A stretch of 64,000 bases of DNA from Nitrososphaerota archaeon. Its GTDB lineage: Archaea > Thermoproteota > Nitrososphaeria > Nitrososphaerales > Gagatemarchaeaceae. Each line of letters begins with the position of its first letter. Position 1 is the stretch's first letter. The stretch is from NCBI GenBank assembly GCA_029785375.1, contig JAFLZV010000001.1:12320-76319 (forward strand). The letters are read 5' to 3'. Below are positions 13,522-42,845 of this stretch, in pieces. A program made the position numbers and the translations under genes. Under the pieces are notes generated by a model. That model ran no database searches. It worked only from the letters and a program-made list of their open reading frames with translations, and was not told where the DNA came from.

Positions 13522-15746
13522 CTATTCCTTGTCGATGAATTCCTCGGCCTTCGGCGGGTCCGGCGGGAGTCCCTTGCGCTTCCTGATGTCCGTGACCAGC
13601 CCCCACAGCATGTTCTGAGGGACCGCCTGCCACGTCTTGAAGTGGGTGTTCCAGACAGCCTTGCCCGCCGTGGCTCCTCTCATCTTCTCGCTCAGGTCGA
13701 ACGTCTCGGCCGCGGGGATCTCTCCCTCCACCACTGTCATGACCTCCTTCTGGTCTATCCTGACCAGCTTCCCCCTCTTCGCGCTGATGACCCCGGTCAC
13801 CGCGCCTATGAGGTCTGACGGCCCCTTCACCTCTATCCCCAGTATGGGCTCCAGGAGAGTGGGGTTGGCTGACAGCATGGCCCCGAGTATGGCCCTCCGT
13901 GAAGCGGGCATGAGCTGGGCGTAGGTCCGGTGGGCTGGGTCCTCGTGGGGGACGAAGTTGGTGAGTGCCACCTTGACCCCTCGGGTGAACTCGTAGGCGA
14001 GCGGCCCGTTCTTCATGATGTCGTCGAAGCCTGCCCTGATGGAGTCCATCGACTCCTGCAGGAACTGGACCCCCTTGGTGACCTCGGTCAGGATGTTGCC
14101 CCTCTCGTCGACGGCCTGGAAGTTGCGGGCCTGGTCGGGGTCCCATCCGTGGTCGCGGAGGGTCTTGATCACCCCCTTCGTCTCCACGTTCTCGCTTATG
14201 GTCCCGTTGCGGATTAGCTCGACGACGTCGGGCTCAAGGGGCTCGACCTCGATGAAGATCTTGTTGTGCCTGTTAGGAGACCTGGCCATGATGGGGCCGG
14301 CGCGCGCGCGGATGGTCTCCCTGTAGTTGATGATTGGCGGCGAGGTGATGATCTCCAGCCCCGCCTGCTGAATCTGCGTGGTGGCTATCTCGAGGTGGAG
14401 CACCCCCATCCCTGCCATGAGGGTCTCCCCGGACTCCTGGTTGATCGTTATGACGAGGTTCGGGTCCTCGATGTTGAGCCTCCGCATCACCTCGACGAGC
14501 TTGGGGAGATCCCTCGGGTGCTTCGCCTCCACCGCCACAGTGACGACGGGCTCGCTGACATAGTGGATGGACTCGAACGTGGCGACCCCCTTCTGGTTCG
14601 AGATGGTCTCCCCCGACCTGATGTCCAGGCCGAGGAGCGCCGGGATGTTACCCGCAGGGAGCGAATCGACTATCTCCCGCTGAAAGCCCATGAATATCTG
14701 GACCGACTGTATCTTCCCCTCTCTCTTCGAGTTGAGAAGGTAGACCGTGTCGCCGTTGCTGACGCTGCCGGAGAAGAGCCTCCCGGTGGCCACGAGCCCC
14801 GCGGCGGGGTCGACGACCACGTTGGTGACCATCATGACCGTGGGTCCGTTCTCGTCGCAGGCGAGGAGGGCCTTCCCTACGTCGCTGTTGAGGTCCCCCT
14901 GTGGCCAGATCTTCGGGATGCGGTAGGTCTGGGCGACGTGAGGAGGCGGATGGTGCCTGACGACCATGCCCAGCAGAGCCTCGTGGAGAGGGAGCTTCTT
15001 GCCGAGCTCCTCCGGAGTCGAACTCTGATACGCGTTGATGATGTCCTTGAACGACATCCCCGCGGCCTTCGCCATGTCGAAGTTGAATCCCCACTTGTCC
15101 TTCGATGACCCGAACGCGACCTGGGCGTCCTGGACCGAGACCTTCCACTTCTGCTTGTACTCCGGTTCGGCGTATGTCTCGACGAGACGGTTGAAGTCCC
15201 TCACGATGCCGAAGAGCCACTCCTGCATCTTCTCAGGGGAGAGGCGGAGCTCCTTGATCAGCCGGTCGATTTTGTTGATGTAGACGACGGGGCGGACGCG
15301 CTCTTCAAGGGCCGAACGGGTCACAGTTTCGGTCTGGGTCATAATGGATTCGACGGCGTCGACTACGACAATTGCGCCGTCAACCGCCCGTAAGCTTCGA
15401 ACTACCTTGCCGGAAAAATCAATGTGTCCGGGAGTATCAATCAGGTTGATGACATAGGGCTTCCCCGCGGACTCGTAGTACAGCGTCACGTTGGCGGCTT
15501 TGATGGTCATCTGTCTTTGCTGCTCGAGTTCCATGTAGTCGAGAGCTAACGCTTGCCCTGCCACCGAAGGCGACAACATGCCAGTCGCAGCTAGGAGACT
15601 ATCGCTTGTGGTTGTCTCTATGGCAACGCCGAATGACTATCGGCGTTGATACCATGGTCCACGTGAGCGATGATTCCAAGGTTGCGTATCTGGTCCTTGT
15701 TGTGGACTATCTTCAGGGCTTCTGCTGTCGTCTTGAACTTCGGCAT
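13522..15746 (-). CDS. fusA: Translation elongation factor aEF-2, interrupted: exon 2 = 13522..15617, exon 1 = 15650..15746
   Basis: ATG 15746 gives MPKFKTTAEALKIVHNKDQIRNLGIIAHVDHG. After a 32-nt insert the frame of ORF 13522..15579 continues as KTTTSDSLLAATGMLSPSVAGQALALDYMELEQ...DTPGHIDF...HEDPAHR. The joined CDS is 2193 nt (730 aa), a normal aEF-2 length. Confidence 0.85.
15618..15649 (-). other. 32-nt insert in the aEF-2 P-loop Lys codon; candidate bulge-helix-bulge (BHB) mRNA intron
   Basis: RNA: UCAACGCCGAUAGUCAUUCGGCGUUGCCAUAG. Central 4-bp helix AUGG (15655-15652) / CCAU (15623-15620), 3-nt bulges UA|U and AG|A, inner 9-bp stem CAACGCCGA/UCGGCGUUG with a 7-nt loop. Removal joins GGU-A + AG-ACA-ACC into G-K-T-T. 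Confidence 0.6.
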
Positions 15747-15801
15747 AGTCCTTTCACTAAGTCTGCCCTTATGAAGTGGTTATGAACGTTTCCTTATCAG
15801 A

Positions 15802-16856
15802 TAGATTGTAGCATAATGTTCTCTGCCGCTCCAGTATCTCTAGCTCGACCCGTCGTCCGCCACCTCTCGGCTCAGAAGGACATGAACCTGTTGTAGAGCA
15901 CCACCTTCAGGGTGGCCTCTGCCTTCTGGCTCAGGAACCTCCTCGCCATGAGGGTGTCCCCGAGGACCCTCTTGAACGCAGAGAAGACTATCTCTGCCAT
16001 CCACCTCTTGCCGTAGCCCTTCAGCTCCTTCCACTTCTCGTACCCGACCCTGCGCACGAGGATCGCCTCGTCCTTCCTGAGGGGGGACCACTTGGCCTTC
16101 TCCGACGCGTTCTTCCTGAGCTTGATGGCAGGGTCGATGCCACGCTCGTGCATAGGGAAGTTCCTCCTGGAGTCGTAGGCAGAGTCCGCGTACGCCCTCG
16201 CCACCCTCCTCTTCCTTGCGACCTCCCTGACCATCGGGACGAACTTCTTCGTGTCCCCGGTCTTCTCGGACGTCACCCTGAACCCGACGATCTTCCCCGT
16301 CTTCCCATCCGCGACGACGTGGAGCTTGATGAACTTCCTCTTCTCCTTCCTCCAGATCGCCTCGATGTAGGAGCCCTTGTTCGTGGTGGAGAGGCCCGTC
16401 GAGTCGACGACCACGGTGATGGCGTCGTCGTCTTTCCCCTCCGCCATCTTTTCCACGTATTCTGGCTTCTTCCTCTTGACCATCGCCAGTATCCTCCTCC
16501 TGACCTGTGTGAAGTGCATCTCTTTAACGAAAGCGAGGTACTCGGAGAGTGACCCGGTCATGCCCTCTATCACCCTGTACGGCGCGTTGAACCCTACCCT
16601 GAAGAAGGACAGGAACTCGATGTAGGACTCTGGGAACTCGTACGGCCTCCCCGTCTTGTCGCCGTTCATCCCCTCAAGTTCGTCGTTCCAGCGACTGGCG
16701 AAGCCGAGGTCGAACAGGACCCTCCCTCTCTCCACCAGGGATTCGTTGTAGTCGTGCCATGACATTCCACGAGGCATGCCTCAACCGAGGCCGTGAGCGG
16801 ATTACGGAGGCAGGACAAGGGCGATAGACACAGAACTCAAGTTATGCTACAATCTA
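15802..16856 (-). mobile_element. Insertion sequence (1055 bp), one DDE transposase; IS5/IS4-like by architecture
   Basis: 15-bp terminal inverted repeats TAGATTGTAGCATAA (15802-15816) / TTATGCTACAATCTA (16842-16856), flanked by a 9-bp direct repeat CTTATCAGA (15793-15801 and 16857-16865). Confidence 0.85.
15872..16777 (-). CDS. DDE-type transposase of the IS
   Basis: 301 aa. Candidate catalytic segments VVVDSTG, AYADSAYD, GKRWMAEIVFSAFKR. Fills the IS between its inverted repeats. Confidence 0.85.
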   Translation of the reverse strand: MPRGMSWHDYNESLVERGRVLFDLGFASRWNDELEGMNGDKTGRPYEFPESYIEFLSFFRVGFNAPYRVIEGMTGSLSEYLAFVKEMHFTQVRRRILAMVKRKKPEYVEKMAEGKDDDAITVVVDSTGLSTTNKGSYIEAIWRKEKRKFIKLHVVADGKTGKIVGFRVTSEKTGDTKKFVPMVREVARKRRVARAYADSAYDSRRNFPMHERGIDPAIKLRKNASEKAKWSPLRKDEAILVRRVGYEKWKELKGYGKRWMAEIVFSAFKRVLGDTLMARRFLSQKAEATLKVVLYNRFMSF

Positions 16857-16864
16857 CTTATCAG

Positions 16865-16976
16865 AGCGTTGTTGAATAACTCCGAATCAGACCAGATTTA
16901 TGTTAAGTCGCACAGGAGTGGCTCGCCAGACAACCAGGTAGAATTATCATAGACACAGTAGTTATTCAACAAGCCT
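16865..16976. mobile_element. MITE-like non-autonomous element (about 112 bp)
   Basis: 17-bp imperfect terminal inverted repeats AGCGTTGTTGAATAACT (16865-16881) / AGTTATTCAACAAGCCT (16960-16976; 2 mismatches, 13-bp perfect core). No ORF. Flanked by CTTATCAG (16857-16864 and 16977-16984). Confidence 0.5.
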
Positions 16977-17011
16977 CTTATCAGGGGTCTCCTGTTAAGT
17001 TATCTGCGCTG

Positions 17012-18659
17012 TCACTGAAAGGGATTTGGGAAGGGCATTTCCGGCCATTTCTTCTCGAGTAGTTGCTTCACGGTGACAATCTGAATCTTCGGGTATTTCC
17101 TACCCCAAGTTGGCGATTCGTAGTATTCAGCGTCCCTCGCTTCCGTCTTCATGGGTTCAGTTGGCTCATCTAGGGTTATCAGAATCCCCATTGCGGCTTT
17201 CCAGTTGTTGACAGTCCCAATCAAATCCCGTACGTCGCTCGCGCCTACGTTCTCGCCACCCTTGGCTTGGATGATAATCCTTCGGAAGTTGGGGTCGTTA
17301 CCCTCCTTGAAGGTGAGATAACCGTCCCTTCCTCTGTCGGCCCCCTTCTTGCCGACCTTGCTCCCTTCTGGCGCTCCGATTGGTCGGGCGTCGAGCAAAG
17401 AAAGTGACCACCACTGGAATTGGTATTTGTCGGCCTTGGCGAGGCCCTGTGCCTCATTGAATGTGGTTGGCTCCCCTATAATCTGGTAATTGCGGGGCGT
17501 GTAGACCTTCATTTCCCTTAACGCGGATTTCATAATGGAGATTGCCAGATGTGTGATGTCGATTCCTATCCAATTCCGCTTCAATTCATTGGCCTCGAAG
17601 ATTGCTGTCCCGCAACCACAGAAGGGGTCGAGAACCCAGTCGCCTTCGTCAGAACTGGCCTCTATGATTCTGTCGAGCAATGCAGCCGGCTTCTGAGTGG
17701 GATAACCAAGCCGCTTAGGAGATTGCGGTGGGATTGGGCCAATGTCAGTCCAGAGGTCTTGCACATCGACGCCACCAAGATCGTCCTTATACTGCATGAA
17801 CATCGGCGTCCCTCCCTCTTTCTTCGGCCAAGAAATGCGGCCAATCTCGTCCAGTTTGTCAAGCGCCGTTTGAACATCTGGGAACGGTCCCTTCCCCAAC
17901 AAAGGTCGGACATAGCCAGGTATCGCCCAATGCCTGCCGATCTTCGTCGGGTCAATCCCACGCCAAGGCTTTCCGGACGAGCCGTTGCGCGTTCCAGAAC
18001 CAGTTAGAAGCGTAAGTCGATATTGCCCCCTTGAATCTTCGAACTTGAAGAAATTGTCGAGGTATTCCTGCGAGTATTCGAGGGGTTTCGGATGCCAGAC
18101 ATACTCATCCGATTTGGTATAGAAGAAAATGGTATCATGAATCGGGCCATATCGATTCGCGCCGCTAGGCGTAAGTTCTCTTCCACGAAATCTCGTTCCT
18201 GAAACGAGTGGGGCCGAAAATGGTATCGAGGATGACTTTCAGGTAATGGCTCGCTGTCGGGTCACAATGGAGGTAGAGAGAGCCGTTGTCCTTCAGGACG
18301 CGATGAAGTTCTACTAGGCGAATCGCCATCATCACAAGGTAAGCGGTAAGGTCATTCCTTCCCAAGAAGGCGACGAAAGCCTTGACGGCCTCGCCTACCT
18401 CTGGGGAGCGCTCTTGTAACTCAACATAAGCAGCTTCTGCCGCATCGTCCCAATGCCAGAAATCATCGAATGCTTGAATCTGGGCCGCTGACTGTTTACC
18501 GCCCTTCTCCTTGAAGAGGACGTTGTATGTCTCCTTATTGTTGAACGGAGGGTCGAGATAAATCAGCGCGATGCTTTCAGATCGTAAGTAGTCTCTGAGG
18601 ATCTTGAGATTGTCGCCATAGAATAGGGTGTTGACCTTCGGATTGGAAGGTGAAGTCAA
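17012..18659 (-). pseudogene. N4/N6 DNA methyltransferase fused to a C-terminal Mrr-like PD-(D/E)xK domain, split by a single frameshift near 18165-18172
   Basis: N-terminal ORF 18165..18659 has motif IV (YLDPPF) and ends ...NEISWKRTYA-stop. The same protein continues in the +1 frame (SGANRYGPIHDTIFFYTKSDEYVWHPKP...) into ORF 17012..17902, which has motif I (VLDPFCGCGT) and an Mrr-like tail (GRDGYL...IIIQAKGG). Confidence 0.75.
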
Positions 18660-18720
18660 GCCCGCCGAATCGGCTCAACATATTGTATAAAGTGATTGCC
18701 TCCTTAGCGGATAATATCCT

Positions 18721-20004
18721 TCAGGGCAGTTTAAGGGAGCTTTCACTACGTTGTTTCAGGTGGTCAAGCATAGAAAAAGGGGGATGGGAAGACTGTCTGT
18801 TGAGCCGATAGAATAACAACTGTTGCTTTGTTTCACTATCGAACCCGACGAGTTTTGAGAACTTGGAGATTTCCCCGGCGCTGGTAATCTCACTGGTCCA
18901 GAGAACAGTCAACTCTTTGCGAAAGTCCGAGTATGCGACTGAAGGCTTCAAAGTTGTCTCCATCCCGAACGATCTCTGAAGAAGTGCTGCCGAGGCCAGA
19001 AGCAGTGAAGGATGCTGGTTGACAATTTCTTTGGCATCGGGGGGCAGATTGTTGTATGGTGTGACGCGCGGTTTTCGCGAGATTAGATTCCTGTAAGGTT
19101 CAAGCTGGGGAACGGCTACAGTTTGAACGAGTCGCATGAACCGAGCCATCCCTTCAGCGGTCCACAAGGCTCTGAGATATGCAGATGCGACGTTACTAGG
19201 AGATGAAAACAGCCACAGTGGAGTTGCGTTGTTGGCAACTTTCTGTCGAAGTTTCGTGTTAATCCCTGCCAAGTTCAGAAGAGTTGGCATGAGGAGACTC
19301 CAGTTTGTTTCGCTTATGTCTGGATAGATGCCTGTATTGACCCGCATGCGTCCGATGACGTGTTCGACAGCCCGCTTCATTAGATCATGGAGCTGTTGGT
19401 CTTTGTTCGTGAAGGTACAGTTTCCGTGCTTGGAGTCAGTGTAGTATCCCAGAATTGCAGCTCCTTCCGCATTGAAGAAGTTGAATGGGAGTTTGGGTTC
19501 GATCTCCTTAGGCCAATTGTTTTTGTGGCACTTCACGCGGAGCACGCAGGGTTCAAGTTGGTCGATGTCGAAGCTAACATGCTCCCTAGCTCGGAATAGG
19601 CTTTCGATGGTGATGTAGCCGTAGTATTTTGCTACAGCACACGAGTAGATGTTCTCGAGGCCAAGACTTTTGGCTTCTTTGGCGCTGTATCTCTGCCTGA
19701 TTGTTTTCCAGAGGTCTGCCAGAATCGAGAGGCCACGTTCAGAGAGATGAATTGCGGTCTTGCCAGGGAGGTCACTGAGATGAATCAGAGGCTTCCCAGG
19801 ATTGATACGATAGTGTGCTTCGAGTTGGTCCAGCCACTCTGGCCTGTATTGGTGCAGCCGACGACTTTGTGTAGTTATTTGCGCAGCACCTAGGTTCCTG
19901 ACTCTGGAAATTGCATACTCGATTTCGAAGGTCTTGGAATCTGTTCCCTTCTTTTCCCCTTTGTTCGATTCGTCGTTCGGTCTCGTGTTGTCCATAGTCT
20001 GCAT
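18721..20004 (-). CDS. Free-standing double-motif LAGLIDADG-like protein (homing-endonuclease fold), function unknown
   Basis: 427 aa. Two LAGLIDADG-like motifs, AAILGYYTDSKHG and ASAYLRALWTAEGMA. AT-richer codon usage than its surroundings (by eye). Confidence 0.5.
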   Translation of the reverse strand: MQTMDNTRPNDESNKGEKKGTDSKTFEIEYAISRVRNLGAAQITTQSRRLHQYRPEWLDQLEAHYRINPGKPLIHLSDLPGKTAIHLSERGLSILADLWKTIRQRYSAKEAKSLGLENIYSCAVAKYYGYITIESLFRAREHVSFDIDQLEPCVLRVKCHKNNWPKEIEPKLPFNFFNAEGAAILGYYTDSKHGNCTFTNKDQQLHDLMKRAVEHVIGRMRVNTGIYPDISETNWSLLMPTLLNLAGINTKLRQKVANNATPLWLFSSPSNVASAYLRALWTAEGMARFMRLVQTVAVPQLEPYRNLISRKPRVTPYNNLPPDAKEIVNQHPSLLLASAALLQRSFGMETTLKPSVAYSDFRKELTVLWTSEITSAGEISKFSKLVGFDSETKQQLLFYRLNRQSSHPPFSMLDHLKQRSESSLKLP

Positions 20005-20354
20005 TTCCTCTTAACGGCCAGGCTGTGCCAGTCCTGAACAACGACCGAATCTGTTGCGAAAGTTTGGATGTGTTGGTGGTCTGTTAGAACTGGTCCATTG
20101 CTTCGCTGTACTGATGACCAGTCACAACCGTTTCCTTGTCTTCCCTTTCCTCCTTCCGCATGGTCAGTCGGTCGCCTCCCCACCTTCAGCGTGCTTTGCT
20201 CGCGGGCCGTTCCTATGCGGACCTGTCTCGCGCCTGACCTCTCGATCGGGCGTTCATCTTGCACTCCGATGGGGCACGGAAACCTCTGGGATGTTACCCA
20301 GATTTCTATACTGCTTCACAAAGCGTTACCAAACCACAGCCTTTCATTCACACG

Positions 20355-20467
20355 TCGTGACCGTGGGCACGGTTTCGTGCGGGGACGGCACCACAAGGTA
20401 ACGTTTCGTGACTCTGAACCCGCGGCACTGTCACGATCTGTGAGCCACCCTTCAAAGGAGAGTCACG
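20355..20467. promoter_or_regulatory. Cluster of TCGTGAC / GTCACGA motifs upstream of the HerA-like gene
   Basis: TCGTGAC 20355-20361, TTTCGTGC 20373-20380, TTTCGTGAC 20404-20412, GTCACGA 20430-20436, GTCACG 20462-20467. All lie within 130 bp of ATG 20481. Confidence 0.3.
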
Positions 20468-20480
20468 CCCGACGACGGGC

Positions 20481-21653
20481 ATGGCCCCGAAAGGCTCCAT
20501 AGTCGTCGGGGAGCAGCTGCGCACCCTCGACCCCACCCCGAGGGGGGTCGTCACCCTGGACCTGGAGGCGCTCAGCAGGCATGTCGCGATACTTGGGACC
20601 ACTGGGTCGGGGAAGTCGACCTGCGCCGCGATGATCGCCCGGGAGCTGGGCGCGCTTGGCAAGGCGGTCGTCGTCCTGGACAGGACGGGGGAGTACGTGG
20701 AACTCCTCAGGTCGGCCGCGCCGGCGGTGCTCACCCCCGGGAGCGACTTCGCCATTTCTCCCTTCGACCCGCGCGGGAAGTTCGACCACGAGCGCACGGA
20801 CGAATGGATCTCGCTCCTGGAGCACTACAGCAGGGTGAGCTTCGGGGTTGGCCTCTCCCCGCTGCAGAACCGGGTGCTCAGAGACGCCCTGGAGTCATAC
20901 TTCCACGGGACCCAGAGGCCCCTGCCTGTCCGCGAGCTGGTCCGGAGGCTCCAAGAGGCCGAGGACGAGCTCTTCAAGCTCAGGGGGTGGGTAGAGTCGA
21001 TAGAAGCGCTGGTCTCAAAGCTCTGGCCCCTGACCCACGGCGCCATAGGAAGGACCCTCGACGCCCAGGGCGGAGGGTTCGAGACAACCAGCCTCTTCGG
21101 GGCCGGGGTGAAGGTAGTGGACCTCTCGGGGCTCCCGGACGACAGGGCGAAGAACATGCTGAGCCAGCTGTTGCTCAAGGAGGTATACGAAGAGACCAGG
21201 AAGCGGGGGAGGACGGAGGCGCTGCGTCTGGTGATGGTCATCGATGAGGCCCAGAACCTGGCTCCGGTCTTGAAGGACTACACGAGCATCCCGGAGAGGT
21301 GCGCCATGGAGCTCCGAAAGTATGGATTCTCCCTGGTGGTCTGCGCGAGCAGGCCCTCGCTGCTGAGCCAGAACGTCATCGCGAACAGCAACACCCTCAT
21401 CTGCCACATGCTGAACAACGAGACGGACCTGGAAGCCGCGGCGGGGTTCTTCGTAGGTTCGAATGTGAAAGACTCGCTGAGGCGGCTCCCTGTGGGGGTG
21501 GGGATGCTTCAGGTGAACCACCCGGAGCCAAAGGACGCGGTCAGGGTCAGGATTGGCACCGACGGACAACGGAAGAATGTCCTAGGCGACCTGGTAGTGG
21601 GAGCGTTCAGGGACCAGCGTCACCGAGCGGCCGAAGCCTTTCGCCCCGGATGA
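20481..21653 (+). CDS. HerA/FtsK-like P-loop ATPase (DUF87-type), lacking an N-terminal HAS barrel
   Basis: 390 aa. Walker A ILGTTGSGKST, Walker B VMVIDEAQNLAP, then VVCASRPSLLSQNVIANSNTLICHML. Confidence 0.8.
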   Translation: MAPKGSIVVGEQLRTLDPTPRGVVTLDLEALSRHVAILGTTGSGKSTCAAMIARELGALGKAVVVLDRTGEYVELLRSAAPAVLTPGSDFAISPFDPRGKFDHERTDEWISLLEHYSRVSFGVGLSPLQNRVLRDALESYFHGTQRPLPVRELVRRLQEAEDELFKLRGWVESIEALVSKLWPLTHGAIGRTLDAQGGGFETTSLFGAGVKVVDLSGLPDDRAKNMLSQLLLKEVYEETRKRGRTEALRLVMVIDEAQNLAPVLKDYTSIPERCAMELRKYGFSLVVCASRPSLLSQNVIANSNTLICHMLNNETDLEAAAGFFVGSNVKDSLRRLPVGVGMLQVNHPEPKDAVRVRIGTDGQRKNVLGDLVVGAFRDQRHRAAEAFRPG

Positions 21654-22005
21654 GCAAAGCAAGCATCTTCGCCCCGTCGTCCAGGGTGTTCATCTGGTAT
21701 CGCGGCCTCTCGCGGGACCCAACGTTGGTCACGACCCCGTATCGCTCCAGCCTTTCCAGGGCCAGCCTGAACCGCCCTTCCCTCAGAACCGACCGCCTCC
21801 CCGCCGCGCACCTCGAACCAATCTCCCGGAGGGGGAGCGCCTCCTGGGCGTTGGTCAGGACGCAGACCAGCCTGTACTCCGGAGAGCCCCCGAAGGCGAC
21901 GTGCACCGCCTTCCTCGCTTCGTTGAGGAGGTCAGCCTGCACAAGGACCTCGACCATCCGGAAGGCCCTGCCGAGGCCCCTGGAGGTGTCCCCGGGGCTA
22001 GGCAT
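21607..22005 (-). CDS. Small winged-helix protein, last gene of the minus-strand operon
   Basis: 132 aa. EYRLVCVLTNAQEALPLREIGSRC...LALERLERYGVVTN resembles a wHTH. Its start overlaps the upstream gene end by 8 nt. Its 3' end overlaps the convergent ATPase gene by 47 nt. Confidence 0.45.
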   Translation of the reverse strand: MPSPGDTSRGLGRAFRMVEVLVQADLLNEARKAVHVAFGGSPEYRLVCVLTNAQEALPLREIGSRCAAGRRSVLREGRFRLALERLERYGVVTNVGSRERPRYQMNTLDDGAKMLALLIRGERLRPLGDAGP

Positions 22006-23038
22006 AGATCCGCGCCACAGCCCTCAACTGCGCCCTGGTGAGCTTCACTTCGGCGCCCCCCGGGGTCTCGACGGACACCTTTCCTTCCGCTTCGCCCCTG
22101 GCCATGACCCTGTCGGAGAACGGCTCCGTCCTGGAGGCGTCCAGCGCGGCGAGGAAAGGGGAGAACGCGTCGGGCCCGGGCCAGCCGTGCCTTTCCTGGA
22201 TCTTCTCGACGACTTCGGCGAAGAGAGGCTGCCTGGCGGGGGTGAGATCGGAAGGGGGTATGGAGGGGGTACCCGCAGGCTCGGAGAGCCTGAACGCCCT
22301 GTGGGAGACGACCAACCCCTCCTTGGTCCTTACGGCGAAGACGTCGAATGGGAGGGACGACACGGCCTCCAGGTCTTCGGTCCCGATGTCGAGGCGGTCG
22401 AGCGTCAGTGAGAGCCTCTTGCCGGCGTCGCGGCTGTCCAGGGGGAGAAGGTGGGCCCCCCTCTGCGATAGCATCCGCGCCTTGCACCGCAGGGTCCTGA
22501 GGACCTTCTCCTCGGCTCCCCTGTAACCAAGTGCGTAGACGCTCACGACCTGGAACGCCGAGGGGGACCTGCCCGCGAAGACCAGGAGCCGGCCGTCCAG
22601 GGCGGCGACCCCCCTCGTCTGATCCTGCGCTTCGAGCTTGACCTCGGCGAGTGCGTGCCAGCGCAGCGGGAAGAGCCTGCTCCTGAGGAGTATCGAGTCA
22701 GTCATGGGGACCACCCCGCCCCCCACCCCGTGCCTGCGCGCGAGGGGCCAGAAGACTACGGCGAGCCCGCCCGTGAAGAAGGCTATCGGCGAGAGCGTCC
22801 CACCGGCTTCCACCGCGGCTAGCGCCAGCAGGAAAAGCACGCCCCCCGCCGTATACCTGCCCCAGGGACGCCGGGGCCTCGCCAGGACCTGCTGCTTGAG
22901 CATGACCGCACGCTGGGCCCTCGGCTTACGGAAGGAGTAGACGAGGTAGACCAGGGCCAGCAGGAAGATGGGCCACGCGCCGAGACCCAGGGCGATTAGC
23001 CCCGCTAAGACCGCGAGCATTCGCGCTCCCCACCCCAT
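21998..23038 (-). CDS. Membrane protein (about 4 TM) with a large soluble C-terminal domain, no recognisable family
   Basis: Start placed at MGWGARMLAVLAGLIALGL (ATG 23038), which overlaps the upstream stop as ATGA. Hydrophobic N-terminal third, then about 230 aa soluble. Confidence 0.55.
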   Translation of the reverse strand: MGWGARMLAVLAGLIALGLGAWPIFLLALVYLVYSFRKPRAQRAVMLKQQVLARPRRPWGRYTAGGVLFLLALAAVEAGGTLSPIAFFTGGLAVVFWPLARRHGVGGGVVPMTDSILLRSRLFPLRWHALAEVKLEAQDQTRGVAALDGRLLVFAGRSPSAFQVVSVYALGYRGAEEKVLRTLRCKARMLSQRGAHLLPLDSRDAGKRLSLTLDRLDIGTEDLEAVSSLPFDVFAVRTKEGLVVSHRAFRLSEPAGTPSIPPSDLTPARQPLFAEVVEKIQERHGWPGPDAFSPFLAALDASRTEPFSDRVMARGEAEGKVSVETPGGAEVKLTRAQLRAVARIYA

Positions 23039-24048
23039 CAGTGGAACCCCTCCCCGTCCTGCCGGGCGTAGGCGAACCTGGTGTACTCCTCGAGGGCTGG
23101 GTGCCTGGCGGCCCAGAAGGCCTTGGTGCACTCCTCCTTCTCGTCCGGGTTGAGCGCCTCCGGATTCCTGTCTTTGTTCCTCGACGCCGTGGACTTCGTG
23201 AGCTCGAGGGAGAACTTCGCGTCGTGGCCCAGGATGACACCGCCGTAGGGTATCCGGTCCCAGGGGTTGATGGGGTCGATGGAGACGTGGCTTGTGACCA
23301 GGACGGCGATCTTGAACTCGGCGCAGAGGCGCTGGGCGTGGGCCAGCAGCATTGCGAGGCCCGCGCTCCGGGCAGGGAGGTCCTGGGTGCTCGGGAAGGA
23401 GGCCTTGAACGGCGCGGATATCGAGTCATAGACGAGGAGCTTGGCGCCGGTGTCCCGGATGATCTGATGCAGCGCTGACTGATAGGTTGGCGTCTGCCTC
23501 ATCTTCAGCTCGACCCTCCCCCCGCTCGAGACCTCCTTGGCCGCGTCGATGCCGTGGAGGTTAAGCAGGTCCACCACCTCAGGGGTCTGGAACACGAGGA
23601 CCGAGGGCCCCTTCGGAGGGAGCTCGACTGTGAAGTCAGGCGAGAAGATGTCAGCCACGGCGCTGAGGTGGGAGTCGGAGTAGGAGACTCCGAGATGGCT
23701 CAGGGCTCCGTCGATCGCGTTGATGAGCTGTCCCCTCGTCACCGGTTTCCTCTTCGGAGAGACCTTTGGCGCCCTCTCGAGCTTTATCTCCGCGACGTTG
23801 AGTTCCTTCCCTAGTCTCTTGGCCATCCTGTCACGCCAGTATGGGACGAGATAGCTCGCGTAGGACTGCTCGGTGTCGAGTATGACGGCGCTCCCGCCGC
23901 ACGCGGCCGCGTGGCAGGCGGCCTGGAAGGAGATTATGCTCTTCCCCAGGGCCTTCTCCCCGAAGATCTGAGTGACCGTCCCCGTGGCCAGGCCGCCGTC
24001 CGTCAGGGAGTCCACGGCGGAGCATCCGGTGGTGAGGTGCTCCATCAC
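23038..24048 (-). CDS. RecA-superfamily ATPase (RadA-paralog/KaiC-like) with a long insertion between Walker A and B
   Basis: 336 aa. GLATGTVTQIFGEKALGKS (Walker A), KLLVYDSI (Walker B), LVTSHVS. About 130 aa lie between the motifs. Confidence 0.65.
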   Translation of the reverse strand: MMEHLTTGCSAVDSLTDGGLATGTVTQIFGEKALGKSIISFQAACHAAACGGSAVILDTEQSYASYLVPYWRDRMAKRLGKELNVAEIKLERAPKVSPKRKPVTRGQLINAIDGALSHLGVSYSDSHLSAVADIFSPDFTVELPPKGPSVLVFQTPEVVDLLNLHGIDAAKEVSSGGRVELKMRQTPTYQSALHQIIRDTGAKLLVYDSISAPFKASFPSTQDLPARSAGLAMLLAHAQRLCAEFKIAVLVTSHVSIDPINPWDRIPYGGVILGHDAKFSLELTKSTASRNKDRNPEALNPDEKEECTKAFWAARHPALEEYTRFAYARQDGEGFH

Positions 24049-25268
24049 CCGCTCAGCCCCTGGAGGAGGCGCCTGCCTGTCTCCGTCACGGTGTAAGAGA
24101 GGATCTTCGGGCCGCCGCCGGCCTCCTTCGGCTCAAGGACCAGGTACCCCTCTGAATGGAGCCTGTCTATCTCGGCCGCGACGTCCGCCGGGAGGAACTG
24201 CACGGAGAGGTAGGAGACCACGGACTGCCTGTTGGCCGATTCATACCTGGAGACCTCGTCGAGGATCGTCTTCGTGAGCTCCGCGCTGGGTCTCTTGGGC
24301 AGGACCAGCCTGGGGGCACCGGGCAAAGACATGGGCCTGATGATGCGTGGGACGAACCCCTGCGTCTCATCTGAGCGGTCGTCACAGACGGTGTAGGAGC
24401 AAGCGAGGGCCGCGGCCTGCCTCCGGGCATTCCTGCCGTTCCATGCTTCGCTTGAGTAGACTCTTACCTGCATCGAGTCTGTCAGCTCGCCGCTGAGGAG
24501 GGCAGGGAGGGAGGTGGCGAGGACGAGCGGGGTTTTCGATTCGAGGAGGCGCGCCAGGAGCTTCGCTGGGTTCTGGTAGCGGGTGAGGCGCCTGAAGAGA
24601 CGGTGAGCGCCGGTGATGAGGAGGGCGTCTGGGGAGGAGACCGGACCGGAAAGGAGATGCACGAGCTTGGCGACGTAGAGCCCCGCGGCGAGCTCTGCGG
24701 CCTGGGGGTAGGGGGCGCTGGCGAAGGTCACCAGGGCTCGTCCCGCCGTCAGCTCGTCGAATGCGTCCGCCCTGGTGGCGTCGAGGTGCCTGAGGGACCC
24801 GATCCTCCCCTTCAGCTTGTCGACATAGTACCCCCTGAAGCCTTCGACCGCTCCCAGGACGTCGTACAGCGCGGCGGGGGTCGCCAGGTCGTTCTGCTCC
24901 GAGAGCCTCTGCAGGGAGGCCGAGAGTATCGCCTCGTCCTCTGAGGTGAGGTCGAGGGCGGCGGCGTAGGCAGAGGCGACGAGCTGGCCGTGCATCGCAT
25001 CATCCCCCTCGAGGTGGAACGCCTCGTACAGCATCGAGCGGTAGTCGAACGTCCTGTAATAGCCTTGGACGTCGGTGGAGATCGAGCCGTCGATGTCAAG
25101 AATCGTGAGCCCCGACCCTGCCTCCGCCCCGGCGTAGGCGAACAGGCTCGCCATGGCACCGGCCTGCCTGCCCAGGATGAGGACGCGGTCGCCCAGCCCA
25201 CGGACCCCGACGCGCCCCCCTGGCCTGTCGAGGGAGTAGCCGAGCCATCCGTCTCCTTTCGCGCTCAA
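24045..25268 (-). CDS. HerA/DUF87-like protein with degenerate Walker A/B, plus a C-terminal winged helix
   Basis: 407 aa. RVLILGRQAGAMASL...LTILDIDGS, DALLITGAHRLF and LVLATSLPALLSGELTDSMQVRVY align position-for-position with ILGTTGSGKST / VIDEAQ / VVCASRPSLL of the 20481 gene, but the catalytic K/S and DE are lost. The C-terminus EIDRLHSEGYLVLEPKE...YTVTETGRRLL is wHTH-like. Confidence 0.5.
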   Translation of the reverse strand: MSAKGDGWLGYSLDRPGGRVGVRGLGDRVLILGRQAGAMASLFAYAGAEAGSGLTILDIDGSISTDVQGYYRTFDYRSMLYEAFHLEGDDAMHGQLVASAYAAALDLTSEDEAILSASLQRLSEQNDLATPAALYDVLGAVEGFRGYYVDKLKGRIGSLRHLDATRADAFDELTAGRALVTFASAPYPQAAELAAGLYVAKLVHLLSGPVSSPDALLITGAHRLFRRLTRYQNPAKLLARLLESKTPLVLATSLPALLSGELTDSMQVRVYSSEAWNGRNARRQAAALACSYTVCDDRSDETQGFVPRIIRPMSLPGAPRLVLPKRPSAELTKTILDEVSRYESANRQSVVSYLSVQFLPADVAAEIDRLHSEGYLVLEPKEAGGGPKILSYTVTETGRRLLQGLSG

Positions 25269-25307
25269 CGGGTCAGCGGGTGCATGGTTTACTTAAGGCA
25301 CTGACGC

Positions 25308-28943: not shown

Positions 28944-29873
28944 GTGGCCCAAGTGCCCGCCATCGAAGTGAGCGGTCTGAAGAAGAAGTACGGGGACATC
29001 CAGGCCGTCGATGGGACTTCGTTCTCAGTGGATGAAGGCGAGGTCTTCTCCCTTCTGGGGCCGAACGGGGCGGGCAAGACAACCACCATCGAGATTCTCG
29101 AGGGGCTGAGGAACAAAGACTCGGGGACCGCCAAGGTCCTGGGGCTCGACCCATGGGAATCAGGGTACGAGCTGCACAAGAGAATAGGGGTGATCCCCCA
29201 GGGGTTCAAGTTCCTAGACTATCCCACGCCCAGGGAAGCCCTCTCCTATTACGGCGCGCTCTTTGGGAGAAAGGTGGACCCAGATGAGCTGCTGAGGAGG
29301 GTGATCCTTGACGACGCGTCCAACGTCTGGTTCCAGAACCTCTCCGGGGGTCAGAAGCAGAAGCTTGGCATGGCGCTTTCGCTGGTCAACGACCCCCAGG
29401 TCGTGTTCCTGGACGAGCCGACGACGGGCCTCGACCCCCAGGCGCGAAGGGCGGTCTGGGAGGTGGTCAGGAAGCTCAAGGACGAAGGGAGGACAGTGAT
29501 GCTGACCACCCACTACCTCGAAGAGGCCGAAGAGCTCGCCGACAGGGTGGCGATAATGAAGCATGGGAAGATTGTGGCGATGGGGACCACCGCGGAGATA
29601 GAGTCCAAGTTCGGGTCAGGGCAGCGGATGGTGGTGAAGGGAGGCGACGACCTGCTGAAGTATCTCAGAGAGAGCACCAGGCTGCATGCTGAAGGGGGCG
29701 CGGGGAGCATCACCATCTTCCTAAGGGACAAGTCGGACGCGATGGTGGCGCTCGGCGCCATTGAGGAGTCCGGCGCGGCCTGGGAAGACCTCACGGTCAG
29801 GAGGGACAGCCTGGAAGACGTCTTCCTCAAGCTGGTCGGAGAGGGCGGGAGCATCGAGAAGGGGGTCGAGTGA
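28944..29873 (+). CDS. ABC transporter ATP-binding protein (ABC-2/DrrA-like)
   Basis: GPNGAGKTTT, LSGGQKQKLGMA, VVFLDEPTTGLD. Confidence 0.9.
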   Translation: MAQVPAIEVSGLKKKYGDIQAVDGTSFSVDEGEVFSLLGPNGAGKTTTIEILEGLRNKDSGTAKVLGLDPWESGYELHKRIGVIPQGFKFLDYPTPREALSYYGALFGRKVDPDELLRRVILDDASNVWFQNLSGGQKQKLGMALSLVNDPQVVFLDEPTTGLDPQARRAVWEVVRKLKDEGRTVMLTTHYLEEAEELADRVAIMKHGKIVAMGTTAEIESKFGSGQRMVVKGGDDLLKYLRESTRLHAEGGAGSITIFLRDKSDAMVALGAIEESGAAWEDLTVRRDSLEDVFLKLVGEGGSIEKGVE

Positions 29874-36384: not shown

Positions 36385-38184
36385 TTACTTCAGGTACTTG
36401 TCCAGGATCTCTTCGTTGTTCTCCGCGTGAAAGAAAACAGGGATGTTCTGAGTGGCCGTGGCCTTGAAACTGGTCAGGAGCCAGTCTCCGTTCTGGAAGG
36501 CCAGCGTCCTTTCCATGAAGGCGTCGTCTATGGCGAAGGTGTCCGAGATGAGCTGTCGGTCATAGGGTCTCGGCATCGTCGACACGAAGTAGGTGTGAAG
36601 CTGCTGAAGGGCGTTGGTGTTCAGGTGGGCGACCCTCTGGGTGCCGACCCAGCAGTTGAGATGGTATTTCCTGCCGTGCCTGAGGAGCCGCTCCAGAGCC
36701 CTGCTCGACTGGTCCGTGCCGTCCTCCTTCCTGGTGTTCTGGGGGATGAACTCCTGCGCTTCGTCGATTACGAACAGCACGCGGGGAGAGAGGGTGAAGC
36801 TCCGCTTGCGCCTCCTGAAGACCTCGTTGATGACGTTGGCGGTCTCGAGTCTGGCGTCCTCGGCCTCCGGGAGGTTGACGACGAACACCCTAGGCGAGCC
36901 CTTGTCTGTAGAGAGTATCTCCTCCGAGAGCCTACTCCAGCTGTAACCTTCTTCCTCCTCTTCGATTTCCGGGATGGACTCCACTATCCGGGCGAGGCTG
37001 TCGAATGCCTTCTTCAGCGCGCTGTTCGCCGGGAGGTCTGCTAGCAGCGGCTGTATCTTTCGGATGAGGTCCATGGTCTTGGCGTCAAACCTGGCCTCGA
37101 TGTCGAGCTTGTTCTCGCGGAGGAACCCCTTGATGAGTTCTATCACCTGGGGGACGAGTATCTTCTGTTGGACGGGCCCATACTTCTCGTTGAGGGTGTT
37201 GGACAGTACCTCGACGATTCCCTCATAGGTGCTGAACCTCGCTGCATCCTCCTCCCCGGCCATCCTGGTCTGGAGGAACTCGACCTTCCCTGCCGCGAAC
37301 AGCTGGGCTATCTTGGGGTAGAAGTCCTTCTCTCTTCCGGTAAGCGCTTCGGGAGTGGCGTGGCGCTTGAAGTATTCGGCCTCGGGGCTCTTGCTGTCCT
37401 TGAACGAATCAGTGAAAAGCACGCGGCTCGGAAGGCGGTTGAGGACGTCGAGTATGTGTATCCCGTACTCTGCCGAGACGTCGAAGATGACCACCTTGAG
37501 GTCAGGTATGGCGTGGAGCGCCTTGCGTATGACGGTTGCAGTGAGGTTGGACTTGCCGCTGCCTGTGAAGGCGAACGTCCCGCTCATGTAATGTATCAGC
37601 TGCTCCAGGTTGACCGAGAACGCTATGGAGCCGTCGGTGAAGCCTAGGAGCTTCCCCAGCGAGTAGTCGTCCGCGTCGCGCCCCTGCGGCTTGAAGCAGA
37701 TGAGCTCTTCTATCGCCTCTTTGCTGAGTAGCTTCACCTGGCTGCCTGTGAGCGGGGCCATCGCCCTCCTCTCATAAGAGACGCCGTCAGCCGCCGTCTT
37801 CATCACGTGACCTATGGGCGCGGCGACTATCTCTATCCAGGTGCTCTTCGATCCCTTCTCCCATTCTTTCTGGATGAGATCCATGAACTCAGTCCTGATG
37901 GCCGCAGGCTGAGAGCGGTCGAGAGTGAGCATCGAGTAGTGCATTGGATAGACGTCTGCTATCTCGTAGAGCGAGTACGAGCTGTTGGCCCCCAGCGCCT
38001 GGACGTTGGGGATGGCGATCAGCTGCCCCATTGCCAGCCGCTTGATCACGTTGGGGGTGTATTCGCAGTCGACCCTTGCGGTACGGAAGGTGACAGTCGA
38101 GTTGTCCACCGTGGAGCGTGTGGTGGTCGCAATCTCACGGAGCCGGGCTTTGAACTCGCCATCGAGGTCGTCGAAGGGCTGCAT
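36385..38184 (-). CDS. herA: HerA-family hexameric ATPase/helicase (HAS barrel + RecA-like core)
   Basis: 599 aa. Walker A FAFTGSGKSNLT, Walker B LFVIDEAQEFIP, GRKYHLNCWVGTQRVAHLN. Confidence 0.85.
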   Translation of the reverse strand: MQPFDDLDGEFKARLREIATTTRSTVDNSTVTFRTARVDCEYTPNVIKRLAMGQLIAIPNVQALGANSSYSLYEIADVYPMHYSMLTLDRSQPAAIRTEFMDLIQKEWEKGSKSTWIEIVAAPIGHVMKTAADGVSYERRAMAPLTGSQVKLLSKEAIEELICFKPQGRDADDYSLGKLLGFTDGSIAFSVNLEQLIHYMSGTFAFTGSGKSNLTATVIRKALHAIPDLKVVIFDVSAEYGIHILDVLNRLPSRVLFTDSFKDSKSPEAEYFKRHATPEALTGREKDFYPKIAQLFAAGKVEFLQTRMAGEEDAARFSTYEGIVEVLSNTLNEKYGPVQQKILVPQVIELIKGFLRENKLDIEARFDAKTMDLIRKIQPLLADLPANSALKKAFDSLARIVESIPEIEEEEEGYSWSRLSEEILSTDKGSPRVFVVNLPEAEDARLETANVINEVFRRRKRSFTLSPRVLFVIDEAQEFIPQNTRKEDGTDQSSRALERLLRHGRKYHLNCWVGTQRVAHLNTNALQQLHTYFVSTMPRPYDRQLISDTFAIDDAFMERTLAFQNGDWLLTSFKATATQNIPVFFHAENNEEILDKYLK

Positions 38185-38186
38185 CG

Positions 38187-40148
38187 TCAGCCCCCCCTCC
38201 GTCGTCCCTCTATTTGGCTGCGGTAGTCTCTGAACCTGCGGGAGAAGAGCACCTGCTGGTCGAGGTCCGACTTTGCCATCTCTATGGCCACCGCGCTCAG
38301 GTAGGCTTGTCTCGTCTCTTCTAAGACCGACTTTGCCTTCTTATCGGCGAGGAAGAGCGGGTAGTTATGACCCAGGGCTTCGGGGATTACCTCCTTCCCC
38401 ATCTCAGTCAGCATGGCCATCACCATGTTGGTCAGATCGGAGCCTCTCCTGAAGTGGAGCACCGGGTGTATTCTGACGTCGGCGGGGCCGTCCTTGTTGA
38501 GCAGGGTGACCTCGTCCCAGTGGTCGTAGCCCGGGTACACGGGTCGGTCGTAGGTGAAGACGTGGCTCCTCACGCTGGGAGTCGACTCGCTGCTCCACAG
38601 CTGGACATAGGACTTCAGGTAGACCCTCTCGGGATAGATGACGTTCTCAAAGGCGCCGTTCACGCGAGCCTTCCCGGCTGCCAGACTGGGATCGTCTCTG
38701 GGCGCCATTGTCCTGAAGGAAGCGTCGATCTCTGGTGTATACCAGGGGGTCGGGATGGTTGCGGCGTTGACCACGCTGTTCGTCTGGAGGAGCATCTTGT
38801 CGCTGTTGAAGTTGGGGAACCTCCCCTCCGAAGTGACCAGCCCGGCATAGCCGAGGATGGGGACGACCGCGTTGACCAGTTCGAAGGCGTTGGTGTCCTT
38901 GATGAACCCGATCGGGAGGACTCCGTCGGACCAGGCCTTCCTGGTGAGCGCCCTGATCAGGACAAGGACCATGAAGTCAAGGTCGTCCGCGGTGACCCAG
39001 CGCTCGGAGCCCCCGCCCTTCACGCGGAGCGGATGCCCCCCCGCCGGAGCGAACACATGGCTGGCGACGGCGAGCGTAGCCGCGAGTACCCGGTCCCAAT
39101 AGGCCGAGGCTCCGGGCCTGAGCCTGAAGGCGGGGGAAGTCTGCTCGAAGCCGCTGAACTGGTCGTCGAGCTCGAGGAGGTCCTCGCCCAGCTTGTCGGT
39201 CCATTCGAGGTCTGCGCCCATGCGGGCGATGAGCTCGCTGGAGGTCAGCGGTTCCCCGGCAAAGAGCGCGAGGACGGCCGCGAACTTCAGCAGCTGGCTC
39301 CTCGGCGTGGGGGTGGCAAGCTGCTCGTTGGGGAGGAGCATCCTGGCCAACTCGAGGTCAAGCGCGGTGACCTTGCCAGAGGGTGTGTCCAGCCCCTCTA
39401 GGACACATCGCCTGTCTTTTATGAGGTCCCTGGTACTCCAGACCAGGTGGGCGACATCCCCCGCCAGGGTCCTGTCCAGTAGGACGATCTTCCTCTCTGG
39501 GTCCTCCGAGACACCTCGGAAGGCGAGATAGTATTCTGCCATGTGCATCAGGGCGTTCGGCAGTCGCTCCGGGTCGACCTCCACGCCTGATTCTCGTTTC
39601 TGGCCGAACACCTGTGCGGCGTCCTCTTCCGACAGAGGGATAGCCGCAGACGCCGAGAGGCCGTCGTCCGTGGCCCGCGGAGCTCCCACCGCGACCCCGC
39701 CTTCGCGGAAGGTCACCGTCCCGGAGTAGGCGAAGGCGCCCACGTAAAACACGATGAGGTCGAGCTGCTGGTCCACGGAGTTGGTCCCGTCGATGGCCAG
39801 GTAGCTTACCGTGTCCGCGCCGAAGAATCGTCCGGCCGTCGACGCGGCTCCCCTGAGGTCCACCCCGAACCTGAGCAGCGCCTTGATTTCAGGGCCGCAT
39901 TCCTCGAGCGCACGCATCTTGGCCTTGAAGGTGTTGAGCAGGAAGCGGGTGGACGCCTGCACACCGGCGATGGTCCGGGATTCAGCTCCAGAAGTGTCGA
40001 CCTCAGGCAACGACTCCGCGTGGAGTGTAAGGAGTTTAAACTTTGGAAGGAGGTCCGGGAACAGAGAAAGTCCGCCTGCGAAAGTGACGAGGCAACCCTT
40101 ATTGGGAGTGGCGGAATCGAACCGCCAATGAAGTTCATGCTCGAGCAC
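38187..40148 (-). CDS. nurA: NurA-domain nuclease, enlarged (653 aa)
   Basis: NurA-like motifs YLAIDGTNS, VLLDRTLAGD, IGFIKDT, GHNYPLFLADKKAKS. GTG start. Stop is 2 nt before herA. Confidence 0.6.
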   Translation of the reverse strand: MLEHELHWRFDSATPNKGCLVTFAGGLSLFPDLLPKFKLLTLHAESLPEVDTSGAESRTIAGVQASTRFLLNTFKAKMRALEECGPEIKALLRFGVDLRGAASTAGRFFGADTVSYLAIDGTNSVDQQLDLIVFYVGAFAYSGTVTFREGGVAVGAPRATDDGLSASAAIPLSEEDAAQVFGQKRESGVEVDPERLPNALMHMAEYYLAFRGVSEDPERKIVLLDRTLAGDVAHLVWSTRDLIKDRRCVLEGLDTPSGKVTALDLELARMLLPNEQLATPTPRSQLLKFAAVLALFAGEPLTSSELIARMGADLEWTDKLGEDLLELDDQFSGFEQTSPAFRLRPGASAYWDRVLAATLAVASHVFAPAGGHPLRVKGGGSERWVTADDLDFMVLVLIRALTRKAWSDGVLPIGFIKDTNAFELVNAVVPILGYAGLVTSEGRFPNFNSDKMLLQTNSVVNAATIPTPWYTPEIDASFRTMAPRDDPSLAAGKARVNGAFENVIYPERVYLKSYVQLWSSESTPSVRSHVFTYDRPVYPGYDHWDEVTLLNKDGPADVRIHPVLHFRRGSDLTNMVMAMLTEMGKEVIPEALGHNYPLFLADKKAKSVLEETRQAYLSAVAIEMAKSDLDQQVLFSRRFRDYRSQIEGRRRGG

Positions 40149-42766: not shown

Positions 42767-42845
42767 CCAGAGGACCCTCTCCGAGTAGGGAGCACTTCAA
42801 GTAATTCTAATATACCACCGGTTGTATACCGGCTCAAGATTCCAT

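Follow-up and report, generated by a model that had tools for sequence, protein, structure and literature searches.

The gene for elongation factor EF-2 in a 64-kb stretch of DNA from a soil archaeon (contig JAFLZV010000001.1; hereafter "the window", meaning the whole of this stretch) is interrupted inside the codon for its invariant P-loop lysine, and the 32 nucleotides (nt) responsible (15649..15618, minus strand) very probably form a genuine intron of the bulge-helix-bulge (BHB) type, which would be removed from the EF-2 pre-mRNA by an endonuclease of the EndA type. This interpretation as a BHB pre-mRNA intron is supported by sequence comparison, and the intron is almost certainly real, since relatives carry matching introns. 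It is regarded here as a tolerated, obligatorily spliced element, and not as a demonstrated regulator.

An intervening sequence in the P-loop lysine codon

On the minus strand, the frame opened by ATG 15746 encodes MPKFKTTAEALKIVHNKDQIRNLGIIAHVDHG followed, in the open reading frame (ORF) translation, by INADSHSALP and a UAG stop codon (15620-15618); the remaining EF-2 sequence lies in a different frame, down to a stop at 13522. When all 32-nt deletions were enumerated, AHVDHGKTTT (AHVDHGKTTTSDS) was regained solely with 15649..15618 removed, which gives a single coding sequence of 2193 nt and 730 amino acids (aa). At the amino acid level, the spliced product shares 90-91% identity with full-length EF-2 cluster representatives from Nitrososphaerales and 98% with the EF-2 of two relatives (L005 and L006); gene callers applied to the window return a truncated EF-2 ORF of 685 aa. 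The original prediction, made from the letters of the window, had named this frame break, the UAG, the one restoring deletion and the 730-aa product, together with the helices, bulges, 9-bp stem and 7-nt loop listed below, and each was recovered in its place, the former by frame enumeration. The features of the interrupted gene are as follows, a vertical bar marking a predicted cut or a split codon.

15650..15746, minus strand: aEF-2 exon 1, comprising 32 codons and base 1 (A) of the P-loop Lys codon
15618..15649, minus strand: putative BHB mini-intron of 32 nt, UCAACGCCGAUAGUCAUUCGGCGUUGCCAUAG, class I, phase 1 in Lys A|AG, the sole 32-nt deletion that restores GKTT
13522..15617, minus strand: aEF-2 exon 2, from AG of the Lys codon to the stop codon
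15618..15620, minus strand: UAG in the exon-1 frame, because of which translation of unspliced mRNA would end after 42 residues and yield that peptide only
15652..15655, minus strand: central helix H, 5' strand AUGG (His positions 2-3 and Gly positions 1-2), pairing with CCAU 15620-15623
15620..15623, minus strand: central helix H, 3' strand CCAU, the intron part (H')
15649..15651, minus strand: 5' splice-site bulge UA|U, predicted cut 15650|15649, at which the BHB rule and the frame-restoring junction coincide
15617..15619, minus strand: 3' splice-site bulge AG|A, predicted cut 15618|15617
15624..15648, minus strand: inner hairpin h', 9-bp stem CAACGCCGA/UCGGCGUUG with the 7-nt loop UAGUCAU, -14.3 kcal/mol
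15659..15662, minus strand: outer exon-exon helix, 5' strand GUGG (Val codon and first base of Asp), pairing with CCAC 15608-15611
15608..15611, minus strand: outer exon-exon helix, 3' strand CCAC (Thr2 positions 2-3 and Thr3 positions 1-2)

The 76-nt region containing these elements has a minimum free energy of -27.9 kcal/mol (z = -4.4), a stability that no shuffle out of 200 dinucleotide shuffles attained; the architecture claimed for the intron is present in this fold, with the inner hairpin h' abutting the bulge and H' without a gap. In the mechanism that we propose, the transcript would fold so that exon AUGG and intron CCAU form a 4-bp central helix, flanked on one side by the UA|U bulge and the 9-bp intron hairpin and on the other by AG|A in a larger loop that is closed by the exon-exon pairing GUGG/CCAC. 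The tRNA-splicing endonuclease, which in Thaumarchaeota is the broad-specificity (alpha-beta)2 EndA, would then cut after the second nucleotide of each bulge (15650|15649 and 15618|15617), and an RtcB-type ligase would join GGU-A to AG-ACA, creating the P-loop Lys codon and the 730-aa EF-2, with the intron probably freed as a small circle. The predicted spliced junction reads ...CAUGGUA|AGACAACC... for introns of the window's class I and ...CAUGGGAA|AACGACCACG... for those of class II, defined below, and the joined product would have the predicted tryptic peptide NLGIIAHVDHGK, then TTTSDSLLAATGMLSPSVAGQALALDYMELEQQR.

Carriers, covariation and history among relatives

The host belongs to the Nitrososphaerales, within the Gagatemarchaeaceae-like (Group I.1c) clade, which we take to be the non-ammonia-oxidising Group I.1c lineage because one carrier is named Candidatus Gagatemarchaeum stordalenia. 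Stordalen Mire is where this organism (L003/L051) lives. Relatives were gathered by fetching the DNA of EF-2 clusters, by scanning reference genomes and through one structure-motivated pattern scan of metagenomes, in which 13 of 13 matches were interrupted EF-2 genes. Most EF-2 proteins in the homolog list have 729-730 aa, but one cluster set has 684 aa and three further clusters 669-670 aa, and the 684-aa clusters start at the internal Met of MLSPSVAGQ, which is also the start of the truncated ORF in the window. Overall, 26 distinct carriers were found including the window, so that 25 other independent assemblies hold a 21-39-nt insert in the same P-loop; comparison of the relatives' EF-2 loci, which the original prediction had proposed as a check, thus found the insert present in these 25 assemblies and absent in others. 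No interruption was detected by tblastn elsewhere in EF-2.

The inserts occupy three positions. Class I splits the Lys codon as A|AG and measures 31-32 nt (n = 7: the window, L102, L001, L096, L032, L034 and L100). Class II lies 1 nt downstream, in Lys AA|A, and measures 21-39 nt (n = 18). Class III, 29 nt long, splits the Asp codon as G|AU, 7 nt upstream of the window's site, and was seen in L022 only, where it bears no resemblance by eye to classes I and II:

L022:2088-2116 (JAJYYP010000021.1, metagenome-assembled genome (MAG) FK4.bin31): class III intron GCGUAAGUGCUUUCGCACUUGCGGCGUAG, H ACGU/GCGU, bulges AG|G and AG|A

For each carrier, we listed the cut pairs that restore HGKTT and compared them with the prediction of the BHB rule, namely a 4-bp helix flanked by a 3-nt bulge on either strand, each bulge being cut behind its second nucleotide. 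The rule predicts a frame-restoring cut pair in 26 of 26 carriers, either as the sole junction or as one among few equivalent ones. Helix H is complete, at 4 bp, in L022 and in all class I and II carriers but one (24/25); the exception, L086, has 3 of 4 bp. The 3' exon begins with A throughout (26/26), and every carrier has its intron hairpin directly adjoining both the 5' bulge and the 3' strand of H. The closest counterpart of the window's intron is informative in this respect: L102, from another metagenome, holds a 32-nt intron of the same type (UCAACGUCGAUAGCCGAGCGACGUUGCCAUAG) whose stem differs from that of the window by a compensatory C-G to U-A change, and since over 444 nt its DNA shares no more than 79.7% identity with the window, it represents a different organism and a different assembly.

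Public databases contain truncated calls for a number of these genes (P0029, P0055, P0056, P0057, P0059, P0060, P0062, P0064 and P0070; e.g., GCA_003139715.1 PLFZ01000171.1), with 669-684 aa from an internal Met and with exon 1 either a separate ORF of 35-42 aa or unannotated. P0058 also has 684 aa, yet its locus, L088, is uninterrupted, and this is merely a short call.

Pairing between exon and intron is maintained by covariation. In class I, a His codon CAU occurs with CCAU and CAC with CCGU in all seven carriers (His3:H' is U-A in four and C-G in three), and in class II the Gly3:H' pair is G-C, U-A, U-G or C-G in 17 of 18 (permutation p = 1.5e-4). The outer helix, GUNG/CNAC, contains a variable pair that links two synonymous sites more than 50 nt apart in the pre-mRNA; this N:N pair is Watson-Crick in 24 of 25 carriers, with all four pair types represented and none of 20,000 permutations matching, whereas the same helix is paired in just 24 of 71 intron-less genes. 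Pairs were also counted on core alignments defined by the register. For class II, 96.2% of cells are paired versus 78.1% after shuffling (0/500) and 40-69% in slid registers, with both-sided changes in 8 of 13 pairs; the corresponding values for class I are 95.7%, 85.9% (0/500) and 27-73%. When only the seven raw class I sequences were supplied, RNAalifold arrived de novo at this architecture (outer helix, spacer, H, 3-nt bulge, hairpin and 3' loop), seven of its pairs being compensated, and the inner hairpin h' pairs covary across class I. Compensatory covariation, which is expected of a BHB intron, is significant in H, in h' and in the outer helix. The sole carrier with a mismatched outer helix is L092 (WNEY01184604.1; GUCG versus CAAC, a C.A pair), whose close relatives L094, L095 and L099 have CGAC.

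On the 5' side, every carrier has a clean 3-nt bulge between H and the flush hairpin. The 3' side is looser. In the window, AG|A sits in an 8-nt 3' loop, one side of which is closed by a lone C-G pair; more generally, the class I 3' side consists of 3 nt, one C-G pair and a 2x4 loop, with the 4-bp outer helix closing the loop, and the class II 3' side is a 4x7 internal loop, likewise closed by the 4-bp outer helix. The strict hBHBh' motif, with a 3-nt bulge on both strands, is absent, and a relaxed HBh'-like motif is present. The outer helix had originally been described as weak; that the motif is relaxed on this side, with its lone C-G pair, stands, but the helix itself turns out to be a conserved, covarying part of the motif.

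A stop codon in the exon-1 frame lies within the intron in 21 of 25 carriers, mostly in the hairpin loop, compared with a mean of 7.1 and a maximum of 17 among shuffled introns (5000 trials), a statistic that overstates the case because the carriers are not independent samples. Every intron whose length is a multiple of three holds such a stop. This pattern fits selection to end translation of the unspliced message. The 22-nt introns of L092, L094, L095 and L099 form the sole group without an in-frame stop inside the intron.

On the EF-2 tree, introns are confined to one clade, in which 8 of 52 reference species carry them, versus none of the 26 species outside, among which are ammonia oxidisers and Conexivisphaerales. 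Class II appears on deep branches and classes I and III in the crown group, and parsimony on the EF-2 gene tree requires 13 changes or more, or else 22 losses if there was one gain only. The class I and II hairpins have a significant core in common (GGCUGGCYUARCCGNCC between L032 and L103, 14/17, z = 5.5), which points to a single ancestral intron with a later 1-nt shift of its boundaries. Most likely, the window's intron descends from an ancestral Gagatemarchaeaceae-like intron that was often lost and that slid by 1 nt in the window's sublineage, and class III may be an independent gain. A different intervening element occurs at the same place in other Nitrososphaeria, including Conexivisphaerales: an intein of about 530 residues directly follows the same P-loop Lys (AHVDHGK|C) in P0069, P0088, P0092 and L074:~437-2000, so that two unrelated kinds of intervening element are hosted at one invariant site.

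The intron reading weighed against its alternatives

Several points weigh against reading the 32 nt as a spliced intron. A window-wide scan for BHB geometry fusing open frames gave 314 candidates, among which EF-2 ranked third; with so many candidates geometry alone is unconvincing, and the case is carried by the comparative evidence. The 3' cleavage site lies outside a clean 3-nt bulge, and the motif is relaxed on this side because the cut falls in a larger loop, which is its weak point; that such a site would be cut is argued by analogy with the crenarchaeal (alpha-beta)2 EndA. EndA cleavage, RtcB ligation and efficient splicing are predicted from the sequence. The window's nearest relatives by EF-2, L005 and L006 (98% aa, dS 0.37), are without the intron. 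The shuffle statistics overstate independence, the carriers being phylogenetically related. Finally, the look-up for a second gene copy covered eight carrier reference MAGs, with the window's own genome seen within 64 kb only, and an exact look-up of the window's 685-aa ORF product returned no match.

Some of these points feed the suspicion that the gene is a pseudogene, or that it has suffered an inconsequential small insertion or frameshift while another copy supplies EF-2. A stop does interrupt the gene, callers give the truncated 685-aa ORF, the start codon has an insertion sequence (IS) 55 nt upstream of it, the insert is missing from the nearest relatives and the genome was inspected within the 64 kb. 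However, the ratio of non-synonymous to synonymous divergence (dN/dS) of the window gene against relatives is 0.025-0.04, exon 1 included, and 0.025 against L005; interrupted genes in general give 0.025-0.079 against their nearest relatives, and intact genes 0.036 among themselves, which places the carriers under strong purifying selection. Exon 1 alone is constrained as well (dN 0-0.05 versus dS 0.55-1.8). Moreover, the same site is interrupted in 25 other assemblies, at dS above 1 and always in a precisely excisable way, the 80 best loci included no second EF-2 locus for any of the eight reference MAGs that carry the intron, and a conserved promoter-like block common to relatives (GGAAAnnTTCATAnCC) was spared by the IS, which inserted just beyond it. 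Loss of function is thus very unlikely. An artefact of assembly or sequencing, i.e., a spurious 32-nt insertion, has a negligible probability: although the exact genome is represented by a single assembly and its exact product is on record nowhere else, a homologous 32-nt intron is present in L102, related inserts occur in JGI, NCBI, ENA and Logan contigs made with different assemblers, and an error would not covary with synonymous sites of the exon.

Programmed translational bypassing, in which the ribosome would take off before the insert and land downstream on an uncut RNA, deserves consideration since the inserts are short (21-39 nt) and combine a stable hairpin with an early in-frame stop that closely follows the take-off region. 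Known bypass elements, such as phage T4 gene 60 and mitochondrial byp, have both of these traits. Bypassing could not yield the invariant P-loop Lys, however, because the class I Lys codon is split A|AG: the frames at the class I landing site read GAG-ACA or AGA-CAA, and Lys arises only when the RNA is joined (A...AG). Nor is a matching pair of take-off and landing codons conserved, and bypassing does not predict exon-intron covariation in the exact BHB register or an exon-exon link over 50-60 nt, which together make it extremely unlikely. That the insert is mobile DNA, a palindromic element resembling a miniature inverted-repeat transposable element and tolerated in EF-2, would be in keeping with the 9-bp inverted repeat, the patchy presence with at least 13 gain or loss events, the three insertion points within 8 nt and the inteins found at the same P-loop in other Nitrososphaeria. 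Yet there is no target-site duplication, further copies were not found in the window, and the hairpins vary in sequence and length by lineage, with the BHB geometry with the exon kept. We therefore consider this improbable to a high degree; at most it is a statement about origin and no alternative to splicing, because a functional EF-2 needs removal of the insert from the RNA. Group I or II introns and other catalogued structured RNAs were rejected, with no Rfam match at gathering score in the window and inserts of 21-39 nt that are far too small; a permissive Rfam scan there produced nothing beyond a chance match of 4.5 bits at the locus.

Beyond the BHB intron as such, a more far-reaching view would see a dynamic family of mini-introns that re-colonise and slide within the P-loop codons, with removal by EndA and RtcB acting as a checkpoint that couples EF-2 synthesis to the state of tRNA splicing and RNA ligation. 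Pointers in this direction are the three positions within 8 nt, the minimum of 13 gain or loss events and the one class dissimilar to the others, but we hold this extension to be rather unlikely. It is equally doubtful that such a checkpoint would be an archaeal counterpart of HAC1/XBP1, tying in elongation capacity, with hairpin-loop stops selected to silence unspliced messages.

Known systems, significance and surroundings in the window

The BHB intron of EF-2 belongs to the same mechanism class as that of cbf5, in a new gene and phylum and with unusual positional plasticity. The cbf5 intron is known from Crenarchaeota (Desulfurococcales and Sulfolobales; Watanabe 2002, Yoshinari 2006, Yokobori 2009 (PMC2738675)), and the searchable literature treats it as the sole BHB intron of a coding sequence, including a 2020 statement of "only one example" and a 2025 paper on EndA structure; the Gagatemarchaeaceae genome paper leaves introns unmentioned. 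The novelty originally claimed, with cbf5 as the only protein-coding case, agrees with this literature, one caveat being the intron in the 5' untranslated region (UTR) of Haloferax HVO_1309. Like the cbf5 intron, the one in EF-2 is short and within the coding sequence, has a relaxed ("unconventional") BHB motif with its cut, predicted in EF-2, after the second bulge nucleotide (PMC2738675), is tied to lineages with hetero-oligomeric (alpha-beta)2 EndA, lies between letters 1 and 2 of the codon for a catalytic residue (Asp in Cbf5, the class I Lys in EF-2), and shows ancestral presence followed by secondary losses. Unlike Cbf5, a pseudouridine synthase, EF-2 is an essential translation GTPase, and its intron occurs in non-ammonia-oxidising Nitrososphaerales, a phylum other than that of the crenarchaeal hosts. 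The EF-2 introns also differ in occupying three positions within 8 nt, a 1-nt slide included, in being far patchier (8/52 clade species), and in having an outer exon-exon helix that covaries and is built on synonymous sites. Splicing of cbf5 was proven by cDNA and in vitro cleavage; for EF-2, the intron is known here from DNA sequence.

In geometry and cleavage rule, the EF-2 intron resembles the BHB introns of archaeal tRNA and rRNA (hBHBh' and the relaxed HBh'/hBH; Marck and Grosjean 2003). It falls within the size range of tRNA introns (11-175 nt), and a tRNA-Arg in the window is similarly arranged. Unlike in those cases, the splicing substrate would be part of an mRNA's coding sequence, which lacks a tRNA body to help recognition, the exon half is constrained by codons and the 3' site lies in a larger loop. 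The 5' UTR intron of Haloferax volcanii HVO_1309 is, as proposed for EF-2, an mRNA substrate of the archaeal splicing endonuclease, seen as a circular intron and cleaved in vitro (PMC7714728), but it sits in an untranslated leader with no frame to restore, and its host is a euryarchaeon whose enzyme has strict specificity. The EF-2 inteins of other Nitrososphaeria share the location of the intervening element, at the same invariant GK|T site, but they are in frame, about 530 residues long and removed from the protein, and the mechanism is unrelated. In eukaryotes, HAC1/XBP1 mRNAs undergo unconventional cytoplasmic splicing by IRE1 and a tRNA ligase (RtcB or Trl1). By analogy only, the EF-2 case resembles them in a short coding intron independent of the spliceosome, cuts in stem-loops or bulges, joining by a tRNA ligase and a change of frame; in HAC1/XBP1, however, the cutting enzyme is IRE1 and not the tRNA-splicing endonuclease, and the reaction serves as a regulated switch under stress.

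If this reading is correct, EF-2 would hold the second BHB intron within an archaeal coding sequence and the first beyond Crenarchaeota, cbf5 alone having been cited since 2002. Because EF-2 is an essential, universally conserved translation GTPase, protein synthesis in these organisms would depend on the tRNA-splicing endonuclease and a ligase. The clade offers a natural series, with presence and absence in near-identical genes, a 1-nt slide, a third position and lengths of 21-39 nt, so that gain, loss and sliding of archaeal introns become directly testable. Selection for RNA structure is seen to act on synonymous codon positions of a highly expressed gene. Public databases hold truncated "EF-2" calls of 669-685 aa for these organisms (e.g., GCA_003139715.1), and since EF-2 is a common phylogenetic and completeness marker, annotation pipelines need BHB-aware gene models. 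Taken together with the catalytic-Asp case of cbf5, the P-loop inteins in sister lineages support the notion that codons of catalytic sites are safe havens for intervening elements.

The window itself shows that the host uses BHB splicing, a non-canonical position included, through one tRNA gene:

56342-56450, plus strand: tRNA-Arg(CCU) with two intervening sequences

Its canonical 14-nt intron (56399-56412; H CUCC/GGAG, UA|C and CG|A) obeys the BHB rule, which bears out the helix-plus-bulge arrangement ascribed to it in the original prediction. The second insert, of about 18 nt, lies in the D-arm and has ambiguous boundaries owing to a direct repeat (AGCG); the strict BHB rule fails to fix them, and the relaxed motif alone fits. 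ARAGORN detects this tRNA only with both segments taken out: neither ARAGORN nor Rfam at gathering score reported an RNA gene for the window, and the tRNA surfaced in a permissive scan. Genes for EndA, RtcB and cbf5 are absent from the 64 kb. Splicing endonucleases that can cut relaxed motifs are of the (alpha-beta)2 or epsilon2 type. An (alpha-beta)2 EndA has been placed in Thaumarchaeota (PMC5829648).

Three other segments were rejected as mRNA introns, namely 38171-38193 (two translationally coupled genes, stop-CG-ATG), 29746-29765 (within an ABC ATPase adjoining its permease gene) and 21603-21625 (a HerA-like ORF fused to an off-frame stretch rich in R/S/P/G), and no second mRNA intron was found among the top scan candidates of the window.

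The IS upstream of EF-2 is complete (15802-16856, 55 nt from the EF-2 start), with a DDE_Tnp_1 transposase ORF on the minus strand (15872-16777), terminal inverted repeats that match perfectly over 15 bp (15802-15816 and 16842-16856) and a 9-bp target duplication, CTTATCAGA, at 15793-15801 and 16857-16865. It forms part of a region directly upstream of EF-2 (15800-25300) that resembles an inserted mobile or defence island. At 17012-17902 this region has a truncated N6/N4 methylase whose fusion partner is an Mrr-like or inactive restriction-endonuclease domain; it also includes two ATPases, one HerA/DUF87-like (20481-21653) and one Rad51/KaiC-like (23038-24048), and several ORFs without a Pfam match. 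Elsewhere, the window holds an exosome operon on the plus strand (131-2375), with a KH-domain Rrp4-like gene and two RNase PH-domain genes, Rrp41 and Rrp42, and other ordinary chromosomal genes such as those for a thermosome (42822-44516), citrate synthase (53469-54716) and NuoD (50149-51273).

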